Below, piece by piece: positions 50,749 to 55,655 of a DNA stretch of 64,000 nt (position 1 is its first letter; the number at the start of each line of letters is the position of its first letter). Position numbers and translations under genes: made by a program. The stretch is from Coleofasciculus chthonoplastes F2-STO-03. Lineage in GTDB: Bacteria; Cyanobacteriota; Cyanobacteriia; Cyanobacteriales; Coleofasciculaceae. The DNA lies in NCBI GenBank assembly GCA_040222015.1, contig JAVJWO010000047.1, forward strand, positions 64,001 through 128,000. Direction: 5' to 3'. The notes under the pieces were generated by a model. That model worked only from the letters and a program-made list of their open reading frames with translations, was not told where the DNA came from and made no database searches.

Positions 50749-51291
50749 TTGACTATGGTTTCCCAGTTAGAAACTCCTACCCTTAATTCAGCGCATCACC
50801 TGACCTACAGCCTAGAAGGGCTGGTACAAGTCTTTACCAGTGCCCAGCGCAGCTTTTTTACCAATGTGATTGCCCAAGGCTTGAGAATCGCTGGACAGGG
50901 GACACCCGTGCTAGTGGTTCAGTTTCTCAAAGGGGGTATTGGTCAAGGACACCAGCATCCGATTCGGTTGGGACAGTATTTAGAATGGATTCGCTGTGAC
51001 TTGCCACGATATATTGATACCCCAGAGTTAGATGAGGCAGAACATAAATCCCTGAAGCAGTTATGGCATCATACTCAGCAGGTGGTGTATGAGGGGAAAT
51101 ATTCTGTCGTTGTCCTTGATGAATTGAGTTTAGCGATCAACTACGGCTTAATCCCCCTCAGTGAAGTCTTGAGATTTCTGGAAAGTCGCCCCAGTTCAGT
51201 AGATATTATTCTCACAGGACCCGATATGCCACCAGAACTTCTAGAGGTGGCTGACCAAATCACAGAAATTCGTCGCAGTCATCAGCCTTAG
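50749..51291 (+). CDS. CobA/BtuR-like cob(I)alamin adenosyltransferase paralogue with a degenerate P-loop
   Basis: VVQFLKGG, VVLDEL, IILTG and ADQITE present; GKGKTT replaced by AQRSFF. Confidence 0.78.
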   Translation: MTMVSQLETPTLNSAHHLTYSLEGLVQVFTSAQRSFFTNVIAQGLRIAGQGTPVLVVQFLKGGIGQGHQHPIRLGQYLEWIRCDLPRYIDTPELDEAEHKSLKQLWHHTQQVVYEGKYSVVVLDELSLAINYGLIPLSEVLRFLESRPSSVDIILTGPDMPPELLEVADQITEIRRSHQP

Positions 51292-51359: not shown

Positions 51360-52256
51360 ATGGCAACGGAAGCGAGAGCGGTTCGTTTCCAGATTGGAAA
51401 CATTGAGGTTTCTGGTTATCAGCTAACCTCTGATCAGGATCAGCGTCTGTTGTTCACCCACAGGCAAATCGCCGAAGTCGTGGGTAAAAGCAAGGGAACA
51501 GCGCAAAAGTTTTGTAAATCAAACGAAAACAACTTGCCAGAAACCGTCAAGACTGTGGTTCCGGATAAACCCAGACCGATCGCGTTATCATCCTGGGATG
51601 CAGCCGTAGCGTTTTGGCAACATCAAGCTAATGCTGGGAATGAGACAGCAACAGCTTTGGTAGAAGCAGCGCGTTCCACACCACCAGAGACTCTCCAGAT
51701 TGAACCAGCGAGTGAGATAGAGCCAGTTGAGACATCCTATCCCAAAGACATCGAAGGCGCGATCGCACAATTACCCCAAACCGATGAATTCCCCCTTGAT
51801 AACCAACTCCAGCAACTGGATCAGGGGTTACGGTTAATCGCTAAATGGTTAGAAGAAGCGGGATTGGATCAACGTGCGATCGCGTCTTGGAAATTGAATG
51901 TACTCACCCAGCGTTTTCCGGCTTTAGCCAGTGCTGCGAATCAAGCACAGCAGCTTTTAGTCACCCATTCGGTTGAGGAGCCATCCGGGATGATCGCCTC
52001 CCAAGTGGCTGAGAAGGTGTCAGCGCAATTAGGACGAAAGGTTAAAGCCGCTCAAGTTAACGCCGCACTCCATGAATTAGGCATTCAGGAATGGACTAAA
52101 CCTGGTTCCAGAGAGCGACGACTTACCGAAAAAGGAAAAGAATACGGGCGAGCCATGCTAGCCACATCCAAAACCAATACCTGGAGTGGAGCGCAGTTGC
52201 GATGGTTTGATAATGTTGTTCCTTTGTTATGTGAATATTTGGCAGATTCCAAATAA
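51360..52256 (+). CDS. Putative DNA-binding protein with a phage antirepressor-like C-terminus
   Basis: HTH-like QIAEVVGK; ASQVA...AAQVNAALHELG...LTEKGKEYG...QLRW. Confidence 0.55.
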   Translation: MATEARAVRFQIGNIEVSGYQLTSDQDQRLLFTHRQIAEVVGKSKGTAQKFCKSNENNLPETVKTVVPDKPRPIALSSWDAAVAFWQHQANAGNETATALVEAARSTPPETLQIEPASEIEPVETSYPKDIEGAIAQLPQTDEFPLDNQLQQLDQGLRLIAKWLEEAGLDQRAIASWKLNVLTQRFPALASAANQAQQLLVTHSVEEPSGMIASQVAEKVSAQLGRKVKAAQVNAALHELGIQEWTKPGSRERRLTEKGKEYGRAMLATSKTNTWSGAQLRWFDNVVPLLCEYLADSK

Positions 52257-52279
52257 AATATGCCCCAGTTCGACCAGCC

Positions 52280-52759
52280 TTAGCCGTAATCTATCGGTAA
52301 TGACAGAGGTTGTGTTGGATTCTCGGTACTCCACTGCTCTAGAATCTTTTGCAAACGAGCTAAGGCATCTTCATCGCTACTAAACTTAATTTCAGCAATA
52401 ACAGTGGGGATACCTCTAGGAAACCGTGATATATTCTTATCTTTTTCGTAAAGTAGAATCAACGGGATATTATGGATTTCTGCATAAGCTAATTCCATCC
52501 CAACGCCAAAAGAAGGACAACCCAGGTAGGCGATGACTAAATCTGACGAACTAACTTGGCGCTTGTCTGTCTCAAAAACTTGTCGAGCGCTAACATCAGG
52601 GTTATTAATCGGATCGGTTTTGAGATGGGGAACATAGACTTGAAATTCCATCGTTTCACAAAGCTCCCCAATCGCTTCATAAAATGCCTTGAGTTTTAAA
52701 GGATTTTCAACTCCAGTTAACGCACCTGAAATGTAAATGTGTGCTTGAGTTTGATTCAT
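52280..52759 (-). CDS. Nucleoside 2-deoxyribosyltransferase / DNPH1(RCL)-like nucleotide N-glycosidase
   Basis: IYISGAL, VYVPH, D...V..SDLVIA and SFGVGMELAYA motifs. Confidence 0.85.
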   Translation of the reverse strand: MNQTQAHIYISGALTGVENPLKLKAFYEAIGELCETMEFQVYVPHLKTDPINNPDVSARQVFETDKRQVSSSDLVIAYLGCPSFGVGMELAYAEIHNIPLILLYEKDKNISRFPRGIPTVIAEIKFSSDEDALARLQKILEQWSTENPTQPLSLPIDYG

Positions 52760-52821
52760 AACTTAATGAATAAAGACACCTAAGTTAATTAGTTAATTCA
52801 GGATGATTTATTTAAAAGATA

Positions 52822-53577
52822 TTATTTGGCTTTTAATATCTCGACAACAAAAGGACTTATACCACCGATAACAGCCGCTAAAGAAGCGCCTATCACTGGA
52901 TTAATTAAAGAGGTTACAATACCAATAGCTAAAGCGACAACAGCAAAAGAAGCCATCCCGAATAATCGATTTTGACGTTCCCGTCTTTCCCTCTCTTTCT
53001 CTTCTTTTATTTCTCGCTCCTGTCGTTGTTTTTCTTGATTAGCCTTCTCTCTAAGCTGCTGTTTTTCTTGACTAGCCTTTTCTATAAGCTGCTGCCAGAT
53101 GTCATCTCTGTCAGGAGGTCTTCCAACAGACACTTTAGCTTGAGAATCTACTCTGAAAAAGCAAACTGTGCAGAAAGAATCTCCCAGTCGAAGTTCTACA
53201 GGACTATCGCGATAGTTGTGGCAAGAAATTAAAAGTTTACCAGTCCATCCGGGATCTACAGTAGTAGAGATGTGAGATAATCCTTGAGAATTAACCCGTG
53301 TAGCCATGGCATGAATAGTTGCTCCCACCTCCCTTGATAAAGTTATAGACTCCAACGTCTCAATAACTACTGTATCCCTAGGTTCAATTTCAATTCCACC
53401 GTCTCTTTCAATATTTTCTTCACGTTTATTATTCCAAGAAAATCCTTTTTTTCCAACTCGCAAATCATAACCAACCGGTGTTAAATACTTTTTATCAAAA
53501 GGCTCTATTGAGATTCCTGTATCTGGATCTCTCTTTTGAGATTCTAGTTGTTTTTCAATATCAACATCGCTAAACAC
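52822..53577 (-). CDS. dCTP deaminase/dUTPase-fold protein with a C-terminal coiled coil and two hydrophobic helices
   Basis: IEPF...PVGYDLRVG, TLESITL and VDPGWTGKL; E/K/R-rich coil; MASFAVVALAIGIVTSLI and IGASLAAVIGGISPFVV. Confidence 0.75.
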   Translation of the reverse strand: MFSDVDIEKQLESQKRDPDTGISIEPFDKKYLTPVGYDLRVGKKGFSWNNKREENIERDGGIEIEPRDTVVIETLESITLSREVGATIHAMATRVNSQGLSHISTTVDPGWTGKLLISCHNYRDSPVELRLGDSFCTVCFFRVDSQAKVSVGRPPDRDDIWQQLIEKASQEKQQLREKANQEKQRQEREIKEEKERERRERQNRLFGMASFAVVALAIGIVTSLINPVIGASLAAVIGGISPFVVEILKAK

Positions 53578-53619
53578 AGTTCCTTGACCTCAACTATTAG
53601 TTTGGGTATGAGATAACGG

Positions 53620-54162
53620 TTATACGCTAGCTCTAGCAACAGACGTCGGCTTTAATAAAAATGATGCCGCTCTGTTTGCTGTTTCATCAGATAGCTGAAT
53701 TTTTTTCAGGGTAACTAAACCCTCATTGATAAATGAATCTCTAACCAGAATGCTTCCTCCACTGTTAAAGGGAGTTTCATAAAAGACTTCATGGATGCCA
53801 GCAGAAATGATCAGTTTTAAACAAGAAAGACAAGGTTCTAGGGTGACGTAAATACTGGCATCAGTCGTCGCAATGCCATGTTTAGCCGCTTGTGCCAGCG
53901 CATTGGCTTCAGCGTGAACAGCGCGAGATGGCATCTCTTTACTGGCATCACAGCTACTTAAACCTGGGTAGCAATATCCCTGTTCTGTACAATGAGCTGA
54001 TCCGGCGGGTGATCCATTGTAGCCAGTGGCTAAAACTTGTTTGTTTTTAACAATTACTGCACCAACCGGAAAAGCCAAGCACGTTGAGCGAGTAGCGGCA
54101 AGTTTTGCCAGCATGAGGAAGTATTCATCCCATGTTGGTCGATCTTGATCAAATGGTGTCAT
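53620..54162 (-). CDS. dCMP deaminase (ComEB-like)
   Basis: RPTWDEYF, RSTC, VGAVIV, TGYNG, HAEANA and PCLSC zinc motifs. Confidence 0.93.
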   Translation of the reverse strand: MTPFDQDRPTWDEYFLMLAKLAATRSTCLAFPVGAVIVKNKQVLATGYNGSPAGSAHCTEQGYCYPGLSSCDASKEMPSRAVHAEANALAQAAKHGIATTDASIYVTLEPCLSCLKLIISAGIHEVFYETPFNSGGSILVRDSFINEGLVTLKKIQLSDETANRAASFLLKPTSVARASV

Positions 54163-55655
54163 TTACTATCCTGGGTATAGAGCTTATTCGTTTTCAGTGA
54201 TTCAGCGGCTTTCTGTAACTCCATTCCTAAATAAGCGGCATGATCGGGTTGAATAGCTGGGGAAGCTGCACAAATTTCCCTGATCAGCGTTAGGGGATTT
54301 TTGCCTGAATAGCAAGCAACGACTTCACCACTACCCGGAGTTGTTTGTTTAACAACGATTTTGTTGGCGTCAATTTCAATTAAAAAGTTACCCGCCGGGT
54401 CATAAAAGTCTCGATTCCGACAAATTGCAGGATATTGTTTTCGGATTAACTGATCTGCATTTTCCCAGGTATCATCATAAATATGAGCGCTCTGACTGAT
54501 AGTAATCAATGGTCCCATTCGCAAATCATAACTAGAGCGCTGGGCAATTTCGTCTCGGATGTACTGTTGCAGGGCGCGTAGTCCCATGGCGTTCGAGGGC
54601 CACGCCATGTACATATCATTACTGCGGAGAGTCGCAGTCAGGGATAACTCATTATCGACAACCCTCGCCCAAAGGTGATTCAGACAAGGACTACCCCCTT
54701 GTTCGTGATCCTTAACATCCCACAGAGACATCACGGCACTTGCCGCATCAATTTCTCCAATTAATTTAGTAATAATCTGCTCAATTTGGTCTTTGCCAAA
54801 CCATGAACGGAGGCGTTGACCGTAAGTATATTTCACACCTTCTCGATAAGGCGCATCATCTAAAATTTGGTGAATGTACTCCTGAATAAAAGCGCGATCG
54901 CAGGGTAAATAGTTGGGTTCAGGGAAATAGAACCCTGGGGGTTCATCCGTCACCACCGCCATCAAATCAATTAATTCTTGCCATTGCCCATCATAACCCG
55001 TGGGACGAATGGTTCCAGTTGTTTTAATCCGATGAATAATTTTGACCCAGGTTTCAGCAATCGTCTTGCCTTCGATTCGATGTCCGTAGCGCGGTCCCGG
55101 TAAAACTGTTGGTACGGCTTCAGTTAGGGGAAATTCTAGCGGCGCACCCCAGGGTTCAACCCTATCCCTCACCGCATAAGACTTTACCTGACTCACCGCT
55201 TCAGCCATTGATTTCGCCTCTTGCCACTCCACCGATTGCCGGAGAGTCTCCAAAGCATTAGCCTCAATTTCAATATCGATATAGCCAGGAATCGCAGATC
55301 GAATCACCCAACAGCGACGCCCTGTATCGCTGAACCCTTCAGTAAAACCATTGCGGAAGAAGTCTAATAAGCATATCCCACCCCCAGCATTTTTGTCTTC
55401 TTTCGTAGCGTTGAGAACCAGAAGGTAGCGGACATGAGGATTCGCTAATAGATTCCGGATCAGCAGGCTGATACCCCGTGTCGGACTATAGAGTTGACCG
55501 ATAACAGCAAACTCATGAGGTTGTAACTGTTTGGCGATCGCACCTTTAACCGTCCAACCTGTAACCACCGCCGTCTGACCCGTACCGTAAATGAGCTGGT
55601 TGGGCTTGTGTAGGGGTTTGTACTGGAATTGAGTAATCTGAGCGCTAGCTGTCAT
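54159..55655 (-). CDS. Thymidylate synthase (ThyA fold) fused to an MtrA-like N-terminal and a DUF4346-like C-terminal domain
   Basis: YTYGQRL, SPCL, RSNDMYMAWPSN and SAHIYD; IRNLLANPHVRYL; DPAGNFLI...HAAYLGMELQKA; 4-nt overlap with the downstream gene. Confidence 0.85.
   Translation of the reverse strand: MTASAQITQFQYKPLHKPNQLIYGTGQTAVVTGWTVKGAIAKQLQPHEFAVIGQLYSPTRGISLLIRNLLANPHVRYLLVLNATKEDKNAGGGICLLDFFRNGFTEGFSDTGRRCWVIRSAIPGYIDIEIEANALETLRQSVEWQEAKSMAEAVSQVKSYAVRDRVEPWGAPLEFPLTEAVPTVLPGPRYGHRIEGKTIAETWVKIIHRIKTTGTIRPTGYDGQWQELIDLMAVVTDEPPGFYFPEPNYLPCDRAFIQEYIHQILDDAPYREGVKYTYGQRLRSWFGKDQIEQIITKLIGEIDAASAVMSLWDVKDHEQGGSPCLNHLWARVVDNELSLTATLRSNDMYMAWPSNAMGLRALQQYIRDEIAQRSSYDLRMGPLITISQSAHIYDDTWENADQLIRKQYPAICRNRDFYDPAGNFLIEIDANKIVVKQTTPGSGEVVACYSGKNPLTLIREICAASPAIQPDHAAYLGMELQKAAESLKTNKLYTQDSK

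Follow-up and report, generated by a model that had tools for sequence, protein, structure and literature searches.

What keeps a thymidylate synthase, a dCMP deaminase, a membrane-anchored protein of the Dcd/dUTPase fold and an NDT-fold protein together in a single run of genes? The run in question occupies positions 52280-55655 of a 64,000-nucleotide stretch of the Coleofasciculus chthonoplastes F2-STO-03 genome (contig JAVJWO010000047.1, positions 64,001 to 128,000; hereafter, the window) and consists of four open reading frames (ORFs) on the minus strand, arranged head to tail. We refer to the products as ThyA3dom (gene 1, three-domain thymidylate synthase), the dCMP deaminase (gene 2), DcdTM (gene 3, the Dcd-like protein with transmembrane [TM] segments) and NDT (gene 4). 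The initial annotation, made from the sequence alone, had read the run as a candidate nucleotide-sensing defence module with a membrane effector. Its four-gene content was reproduced by Pfam, NCBIfam and structural modelling, but the defence reading was not sustained, because the cluster holds the sole thymidylate synthase, the locus is conserved, and genes 3 and 4 have no PADLOC match. Very probably, the run is the organism's conserved housekeeping operon for de novo thymidylate (dTMP) synthesis and not a mobile anti-virus module. That this operon further carries an optional pair, DcdTM and NDT, which sanitises or supplies pyrimidine nucleotides is a reading towards which we lean slightly.

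The thymidylate synthase and its locus across cyanobacteria

ThyA3dom consists of a weakly matching MtrA-like N-terminus, a Thymidylat_synt core (PF00303) and a C-terminal PterinBD-DUF4346 region (Pfam and NCBIfam). The core is of the archaeal ThyA type (TIGR03283, 124.8 bits, E = 3e-36, under the cut-off of 174.55). Alignment to solved ThyA chains showed that the catalytic Cys (SPCLNH), RSND, the uracil-reading Asn (PSN) and AHIYD are kept, and that both Arg residues of the S-R-R phosphate motif are not retained. Family-profile searches of the whole genome (assembly completeness, 99.99%) returned a single PF00303 match and a single PF22769 match, both inside the run, and no ThyX, PF00692 (classical dUTPase), PF08761 (dimeric dUTPase), thymidine kinase, canonical Dcd or FolA. 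Gene 1 is the genome's only thymidylate synthase, and DcdTM is its only member of the Dcd/dUTPase superfamily. The ratio of nonsynonymous to synonymous substitution (dN/dS) of ThyA was 0.04-0.06; this and the dN/dS values below come from two comparisons, in which the values for loci L009 and L019 were identical and probably represent one genome.

Gene 2 matched PF00383 (dCMP_cyt_deam_1, 94.9 bits) and TIGR02571 (E = 8e-38), and its translation shows the HAE and PCxxC zinc motifs. Three further cytidine-deaminase-fold matches exist in the genome, one of which (186 amino acids [aa]) is TadA-like by its motifs. Gene 2 is the sole ComEB-type dCMP deaminase detected in the genome, and therefore dUMP is derived from dCMP.

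A pattern scan with one genome per species gave 51 loci. The 29 related loci (L019-L047) came from several cyanobacterial orders, one metagenome-assembled genome (MAG) labelled Chloroflexaceae and one labelled Anaerolineae. All four genes lay on one strand in 26 of these 29 loci, three of which had the order ThyA-DcdTM-NDT-deaminase, and DcdTM was followed by NDT in 28. The linkage of the two distal genes to the first two, on which the initial annotation had made its reading depend, thus recurs in other genomes. Several Nostoc and Anabaena strains also have the four-gene cluster. A convergent CobO-like gene was present in 21 loci, and the identity of gene 2 was 68-97% in 27. The incomplete cases were L042, which had no deaminase within the contig; L046, a 4.4-kb contig with only DcdTM and NDT; and L047, which ends after DcdTM. 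Identity to the window proteins co-varied between genes across loci (r = 0.56-0.94).

We then surveyed 151 genomes of the phylum, 53 of which belong to the class of the window. A DUF4346-bearing synthase of ~500 aa was found in 23 of the 53 class genomes, none of which had ThyX; the remaining 30 all matched ThyX, 29 of them over the cut-off, so ThyX and ThyA3dom exclude each other exactly. In ThyX genomes, the CobO-like gene, a Dcd of ~195 aa and ThyX adjoin (e.g., G010, G127, G069, G078, G028, G130 and G142), and because of this we regard the window cluster as the ancestral dTMP locus, in which ThyX was displaced in situ. We conclude that ThyA3dom displaced ThyX in situ in approximately four in ten of the sampled class genomes. 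The CobO-like neighbour was also considered as a mark of a corrinoid-dependent synthase, and this was ruled out, since it likewise adjoins Dcd and ThyX in ThyX genomes. That it adjoins Dcd and the synthase whichever synthase is present suggests that the role of the CobO-like NTPase is tied to dTMP synthesis and not to corrinoid adenosylation.

FolA-type DHFR was detected strongly in five and weakly in three of the 23 ThyA3dom carriers. The mechanism of ThyA3dom may differ from that of classical ThyA. Our literature search found no paper on an MtrA-ThyA fusion in cyanobacteria. A stand-alone PterinBD-DUF4346 protein (~130-145 aa), separate from the synthase fusion, occurs in 53 of the 53 class genomes, including the present one (G000 C130:151542-151859), and a 477-aa ThyA/DUF4346 relative is encoded at locus L049 of a Bacillota MAG.

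The partners of the synthase vary among the 23 ThyA3dom genomes. The order ThyA-deaminase-DcdTM-NDT is found in the window's genome and G136, and ThyA-DcdTM-NDT-deaminase, with a DcdTM of ~280 aa whose motif III reads VNP and not DP, in G030, G139 and G148. Other forms are ThyA-DcdTM-dUTPase-deaminase (G102); Dcd, followed by dUTPase-DcdTM-ThyA on the opposite strand (G022); Dcd-DcdTM adjoining ThyA (G084) or distant from it (G035); ThyA adjoining Dcd without DcdTM (G040, G118); ThyA-deaminase only (G090, G096, G151, G180, G121); and Tmk-ThyA (G182). In the other six (G099, G105, G061, G032, G124, G154), ThyA had no such partner within 8 kb, the range over which DcdTM was sought. A TM-anchored Dcd-like gene is present in at least nine of the 23, and a TM segment lies at the C-terminus of each Dcd-like partner. 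The ThyX genome G078 has the order ThyX-DcdTM-Dcd-CobO-like. Within the class, the neighbours of DcdTM-type genes are thus Dcd, dUTPase, dCMP deaminase and ThyA3dom, with ThyX in G078.

The coordinates of the genes and of the parts of DcdTM are summarised in Table 1. Genes 1 and 2 overlap by 4 bp, and the remaining intergenic gaps are 42 and 62 bp. A promoter and terminator scan of the run gave hits at chance level, without a minus-strand terminator-like site inside the run. The ORF between the NDT and CobO-like genes had no Pfam or PHROG match and only a weak match to a transposase (IS630/IS21) helix-turn-helix in NCBIfam; among the fetched loci L019-L069, only the closest relative, L019, has it.

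Table 1. Positions in the window of the four genes, the regions of DcdTM and the flanking ORFs.
Feature	Position	Strand	Evidence
Gene 1, three-domain thymidylate synthase (ThyA3dom), 498 aa	54159-55655	-	Pfam, NCBIfam
Gene 2, ComEB/DCTD-type dCMP deaminase, 180 aa	53620-54162	-	PF00383, TIGR02571
Gene 3, DcdTM, 251 aa	52822-53577	-	PF22769
DcdTM head, aa 1-150, Dcd/dUTPase fold, without deaminase Glu	53128-53577	-	PF22769, Foldseek
DcdTM charged helical spacer, aa 151-206, read as ER/K type, variable in length	52960-53127	-	Model, composition
DcdTM C-terminal two-helix membrane hairpin, aa 207-251, with stop codon	52822-52959	-	Model, TM prediction
Gene 4, NDT-fold protein, 159 aa, cyanobacteria-specific, probably a pyrimidine (deoxy)nucleoside-monophosphate N-glycosidase	52280-52759	-	PF05014
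CobO-like P-loop NTPase (PRK07414); marker of the ancestral dTMP locus, convergent with the run	50749-51291	+	NF005648, 288 bits
298-aa ORF of no known family, between the NDT and CobO-like genes	51360-52256	+	Library scans

The membrane-anchored Dcd-like protein

DcdTM matched the DCD family (PF22769, 52.2 bits, cut-off 27), which assigns it to the Dcd/dUTPase beta-barrel fold, but not the models of classical trimeric dUTPases (no PF00692 match; TIGR00576, 18 bits versus a cut-off of 102.55). In an AlphaFold model based on a 27-sequence alignment (predicted local distance difference test [pLDDT], 93.5), a beta core (residues 1-142) is followed by a 70-residue helix (155-225) and a second helix (227-249). 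Foldseek placed the archaeal Dcd-type dUTPases 9ln3, 8y1w and 9ln0 first (template-modelling score TMt 0.83-0.87, root-mean-square deviation 1.3-1.4, 33-35% identity) and also matched Dcd and Dcd-Dut chains; by sequence profile, the head matched 9ln0 at E = 7e-26 and 8y1w at E = 2e-25. These monofunctional dUTPases (9ln0 and 9ln3, 'dUTPase P45'; 8y1w of Thermococcus pacificus, with dUMP) are the closest to the DcdTM head in both sequence and fold, and, like DcdTM, they lack the deaminase Glu and keep GYDLRVG and DPGW. However, the Thermococcales enzymes are active, soluble and ~155 aa long, and keep R-S-S and the motif IV Gln, whereas DcdTM has M-A-T (M-V-S in the family) and Thr at these places, a signature S-x-I-S-T-T of its own and an additional 100-aa tail of helix and TM hairpin. 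Similarity was weaker (E = 1e-9 to 1e-3) to Dcd (Escherichia coli) and Dcd-Dut (M. tuberculosis 2qxx, M. jannaschii 1ogh, B. halodurans 4xjc), which share PF22769 with DcdTM, and their catalytic Glu, deaminase-site Ser and Arg, and Gln are missing from DcdTM. The motif IV Gln is kept by P45 and the bifunctional Dcd-Dut, and is missing in both E. coli Dcd and DcdTM. The canonical ~195-aa Dcd has the same place as DcdTM in the pathway and in the locus, beside the CobO-like gene and ThyX or ThyA3dom.

The motifs were assigned by profile alignments (HMMER) to solved Dcd, Dcd-Dut and dUTPase chains. The deaminase motif of E. coli Dcd is R-S-S...R, with roles for Ser111 and Arg115. DcdTM retains GYDLR and DPGW. 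The R-S-S of Dcd, Dcd-Dut and P45 aligned with M-A-T in DcdTM and M-V-S in its family, and the next Arg with Ser or Asn; an alternative gapless register keeps one Ser and a Lys or Arg, which makes the exact mapping at this motif uncertain. The deaminase Glu (E138 in E. coli, E145 in M. jannaschii) aligned with Ser. From 120 listed relatives, 112 were scorable at this position and 110 had a full tail: Glu occurred in none of the 112 (Ser 97, Ala 9, Gln 2, Leu 2, Thr 1, His 1). The initial annotation had noted the kept YDLR and DPG and the loss of the RSS motif and the Glu, and we agree that the protein is not a dCTP deaminase; judged by these residues, deamination by DcdTM is excluded. Public records nevertheless call its relatives 'deoxycytidine deaminase' or 'dCTP deaminase' despite the missing catalytic Glu. 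The motif IV Gln is replaced by Thr137, and motif III Asp108 (DPGW) is invariant in the family alignment, as are S101, S104, T105, T106, N121, C136, T137 and the S-x-I-S-T-T signature. Within DcdTM, dN/dS was 0.17-0.19 for the head, 0.45-0.95 for the spacer and 0.05-0.12 for the TM hairpin. The putative pocket is maintained but remodelled, with purifying selection on the head and changes at the R-S-S and Gln positions.

A TM helix was predicted in 109 of the 110 full-length relatives, which, together with the helices of the model, confirmed the membrane anchoring that the initial annotation had proposed. The 'coil' that it named is part of one long helix in the model. A coiled coil is not indicated, as even the best heptad register places hydrophobic residues at no more than 4 of the 15 a/d positions of the spacer, which consists of 73% E/K/R/Q/D; it is better read as a charged single helix of the ER/K type. 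Its length across the family is 22-56 aa. The window's spacer carries 11 more residues than that of most relatives, in a repetitive stretch of QEKQ type (aa ~165-186; alignment columns 175-186), and the closest DcdTM relatives are 240 aa long versus 251 aa in the window.

A profile search over 1.84 billion representatives detected 157 clusters at E <= 1e-30 and 1378 at E <= 1e-10. Among the best 150 representatives, 130 were scorable, with the motif III Asp in 129 and a Glu at the deaminase position in one, and TM segments were predicted in 109 of the 121 with long tails. Members outside cyanobacteria belong to Patescibacteria, Bacillota, Gammaproteobacteria, Nitrospirota, Bacteroidota and Bathyarchaeota, and 15 of the 17 such proteins displayed have the TM anchor. 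Distant relatives have pyrimidine neighbours, namely ThyA/DUF4346 with an HAD hydrolase (L049), dUTPase (L051) and ThyX (L063), and deaminase-domain genes adjoin them at L066 and L068. Loci L049, L063, L070, L071, L074 and L093 have partners among Dcd, ThyX, hydroxymethylase-like ThyA and HAD genes. The clusters that the ESM Atlas returned were all named DCD. No paper on a membrane-anchored Dcd/dUTPase-like protein was found in our literature search, in which two reviews mention the T. pacificus enzyme and no more; a term search of PMC10733785 found no reference to TM forms.

In a tree of head domains, canonical cyanobacterial Dcd (support 100/100) and dUTPases (99/98) formed separate long-branched groups, and the TM-anchored forms were compatible with a single origin. 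The window-type DcdTM formed a clade (99/96). In a further TM-anchored Dcd-like lineage of ~280 aa, which fills this slot of the operon, the motif III Asp is an Asn, within the sequence GHIGTRVNP (L079, 5774-6613; L080, 5664-6512; L083, 5494-6330); the lineage no longer matches PF22769, yet is conserved over its full length. This Asn form was ruled out as a decayed copy of the window type, since the tree places it as sister to the lineage of the G022 and G102 type (B/C lineage; 99/97).

The NDT-fold protein and a proposed route for pyrimidine deoxynucleotides

Gene 4 matched PF05014 (Nuc_deoxyrib_tr, 33.9 bits, cut-off 28.8). Its best sequence matches in PDB were MilB, BcmB, BlsM, one NDT and DNPH1 (E = 0.002-0.1, 18-20% identity). 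For its model (pLDDT 79.5), Foldseek ranked DNPH1 and MilB first (template-modelling score 0.6-0.72), with NDT also matched. Thus, 5'-monophosphate hydrolases rank first by both fold and sequence, though at only 18-20% identity, and the nearest relatives are the DNPH1/MilB-type hydrolases named in the initial annotation. The GVGMELAYA of gene 4 aligned with GTHVEIGWA of MilB, which places the catalytic Glu after a G-x-G turn. This residue, E89, is invariant in 25 sequences, as are 42 positions in all, including the motifs PHxxTDP and SRFPRGIP. Gene 4 shares the fold and the aligned catalytic Glu with DNPH1 and with the CMP or hmCMP N-glycosidases MilB, BcmB and BlsM, but differs in its distant, weakly scoring similarity and these motifs of its own. 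We regard it, from fold and motifs, as a probable pyrimidine (deoxy)nucleoside-monophosphate N-glycosidase. The family has 288 matches, and only cyanobacterial names appear, where shown, among the 120 proteins listed. With a protein query (the PF05014 probe missed the subfamily), the NDT subfamily was found in five of the 151 genomes of the phylum, each time adjoining DcdTM. These five genomes and G002 have no PF00692. In several public records (P0123, P0126, P0193, P0196 and others) the NDT-fold protein is named 'XRE family transcriptional regulator', with which its fold and motifs disagree.

In human cells, DCTD converts 5-hydroxymethyl-dCMP to 5-hydroxymethyl-dUMP (hmdUMP), and DNPH1 destroys the hmdUMP before it is re-phosphorylated, as described in PMC13184875. 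The products are the base and deoxyribose phosphate. That the operon combines a dCMP deaminase gene with a DNPH1-like one suggests, by analogy, the same logic. The likeness lies in a deaminase and a DNPH1-like hydrolase being encoded together here, with a possible deoxynucleoside triphosphate (dNTP) pyrophosphatase upstream, and in the advance clearance of 5-modified dU nucleotides that this would provide, and it is one of function only; the human DCTD and DNPH1 are soluble and unlinked, and the five sampled genomes with ThyA and deaminase have no NDT.

We propose the following route. As a pair of optional accessories, DcdTM and NDT would police the pool of pyrimidine deoxynucleotides or feed it. 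The trimeric DcdTM head, predicted to be carried by a charged helix of variable length over a membrane hairpin of two helices, would bind a pyrimidine dNTP (dUTP, dCTP or a 5-modified form) near the membrane and probably release the monophosphate. The dCMP deaminase would turn dC-type monophosphates into dU-type ones. NDT would then cleave those dU-type monophosphates that are not to be re-phosphorylated, with hmdUMP as the model substrate, as in the human route, and the remaining dUMP would pass to ThyA. The pair most likely handles pyrimidine deoxynucleotides that ought to stay out of DNA, or provides the two enzymes upstream with dCMP or dUMP. The sanitising role, which was the second option of the initial annotation, is plausible.

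Several observations weigh against this role of the pair. DcdTM is interrupted by ~1.1 kb at L038 (7001-8799), and at L045 (7001-7792) it is cut after residue 136 and runs into a 5'-shortened NDT; the DcdTM-NDT pair can therefore be lost. It is also dispensable for the dCMP-deaminase route, as the five genomes with only ThyA and the deaminase demonstrate. A true dUTPase adjoins DcdTM in G022 and G102, so DcdTM is not simply the dUTPase. Only 6 of the 53 class genomes have a true dUTPase; we accordingly rejected the idea that DcdTM is needed because the genome is without one, as this holds for 47 of the 53. Active P45-type and bifunctional enzymes keep an Arg and a Ser in motif II and a Gln in motif IV; these are missing from DcdTM, which makes canonical dUTP hydrolysis doubtful. 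In the lineage that occupies the same slot in G030, G139 and G148, the motif III Asp is replaced by Asn, which argues for binding without catalysis there. Some distant relatives have defence-like neighbours, namely DndB/HsdM/RelA-SpoT-like genes at L062 and a SIR2-like gene at L065. Finally, the proposed route offers no explanation for the membrane location of DcdTM. Both the Asn lineage and the presence of true dUTPases beside DcdTM point to binding as what the DcdTM forms have in common; hydrolysis of a pyrimidine dNTP, as opposed to binding only, is possible but slightly less likely than not.

Alternative readings and significance

The alternative that survives best, although we think it unlikely, is that DcdTM is a non-catalytic sensor, regulator or tether that binds dTTP, dUTP or dCTP (or a deoxynucleoside monophosphate). 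It would regulate or localise the dTMP enzymes at the membrane, or gate its own six-helix bundle, and NDT would be a regulated drain for dUMP or dCMP. Such a role is consistent with a pocket that has lost the Arg and Ser for phosphate binding as well as the Gln of motif IV and is now filled by new invariant residues, with the full-length conservation of the Asp-to-Asn lineage in the same slot, with the presence of true dUTPase and true Dcd beside DcdTM, and with the TM hairpin being the most constrained part of the protein. However, a spacer that ranges between 22 and 56 residues in length and evolves almost neutrally is poor for passing on a conformational change, there is no output domain, and the motif III Asp is kept in nearly all scorable representatives. 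We consider improbable the bolder form of this idea, in which the DcdTM trimer is a non-enzymatic membrane device operated by pyrimidine dNTPs, coupling the dUTP/dTTP state to the membrane or to neighbouring enzymes. Here, three nucleotide-binding heads would stand over a six-helix bundle with P2X-like logic, beside a ThyA3dom that works without a FolA-type reductase. If this were true, dTMP synthesis and its control in many cyanobacteria would follow a scheme that has yet to be described.

Still less probable is an anti-phage module, whether it has a trimeric membrane effector sensing dU or modified nucleotides or destroys modified phage precursors. Genes 3 and 4 do look like an optional, faster-evolving and AT-richer add-on, distant relatives have the defence-like neighbours mentioned above, and gene 2 has, through its dCMP deaminase domain, a domain-level match to the PADLOC dCTPase model. 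But the locus is fixed, ancestral and co-inherited with the sole thymidylate synthase; a search of PADLOC-DB 2.0 at E 0.01 gave no family for proteins 3 and 4 and matched only the deaminase core of gene 2 (PDLC02373). There are no mobile-element or defence genes among the flanks and no effector gene in the run apart from the TM hairpin, a search of IMG/VR with the patterns used found no relative, and the variable, nearly neutral stalk fits a signal-transmitting device poorly. A Kongming operon is mobile and encodes a deaminase, a sensor and an effector that depletes NAD. The run resembles it and the dCTP deaminase defence in that its deaminase is encoded next to a house-cleaning-enzyme fold and a membrane element. 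Unlike them, gene 2 is missing the kinase-like N-terminal part of the defence dCTP deaminase (NF041025, 91 bits versus a cut-off of 400), no SIR2 or other effector family occurs in the run or its flanks, and the locus is core and syntenic.

Base composition gave the defence reading no help either. The GC content was 0.36-0.41 in windows over 52200-53800 and 0.43-0.51 in the surroundings, and 0.39 and 0.40 for genes 3 and 4 versus 0.47 for gene 1. The initial annotation had correctly seen that the last two genes are AT-richer, but the offset does not point to a foreign origin: it recurs in 29 of the 29 related loci (mean 0.36 and 0.38 versus 0.41-0.45; GC at third codon positions, 0.26 versus 0.32-0.39), and AT-richness is therefore intrinsic to genes 3 and 4 and does not signal recent import. 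Likewise, HIP1 (GCGATCGC) is indeed missing over 52280-54160, as had been noted, and in fact from 51883 to 54894, but this 3.0-kb gap is unremarkable, because the window, with 48 sites in 64 kb, contains other gaps of 3.7-6.9 kb. Neither the low GC nor the HIP1 gap argues for recent import.

It is very improbable that the cluster makes a modified pyrimidine for the organism's own DNA, with ThyA as a dUMP hydroxymethylase and DcdTM and NDT clearing canonical precursors: phage ThyA homologues with accessory dNTPases and deaminases do build hypermodified bases, the MtrA-like and DUF4346 domains are unusual and no FolA was found in the genome, but no gene other than gene 1 could supply dTMP (no ThyX, second ThyA or thymidine kinase), ThyA3dom replaces ThyX one for one in 53 genomes, and its catalytic residues, like the Asn specific for uracil, match those of ThyA.

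With the run read as a housekeeping dTMP operon, a layout of 'sensor plus TM' and a low GC content can belong to a core operon. The public annotation of genes 3 and 4 is misleading, and the DcdTM and gene 4 NDT families appear unstudied. The DcdTM branch is sizeable (157 clusters at the stricter threshold) and recurs beside thymidylate synthases, Dcd, dUTPase and dCMP deaminases in several phyla, and the DNPH1-like gene 4 suggests a bacterial counterpart of the human route that sanitises hmdUMP. Synthesis of dTMP is essential and a classical drug target, and about four in ten of the sampled genomes of the class use the unstudied ThyA3dom for it in place of ThyX.

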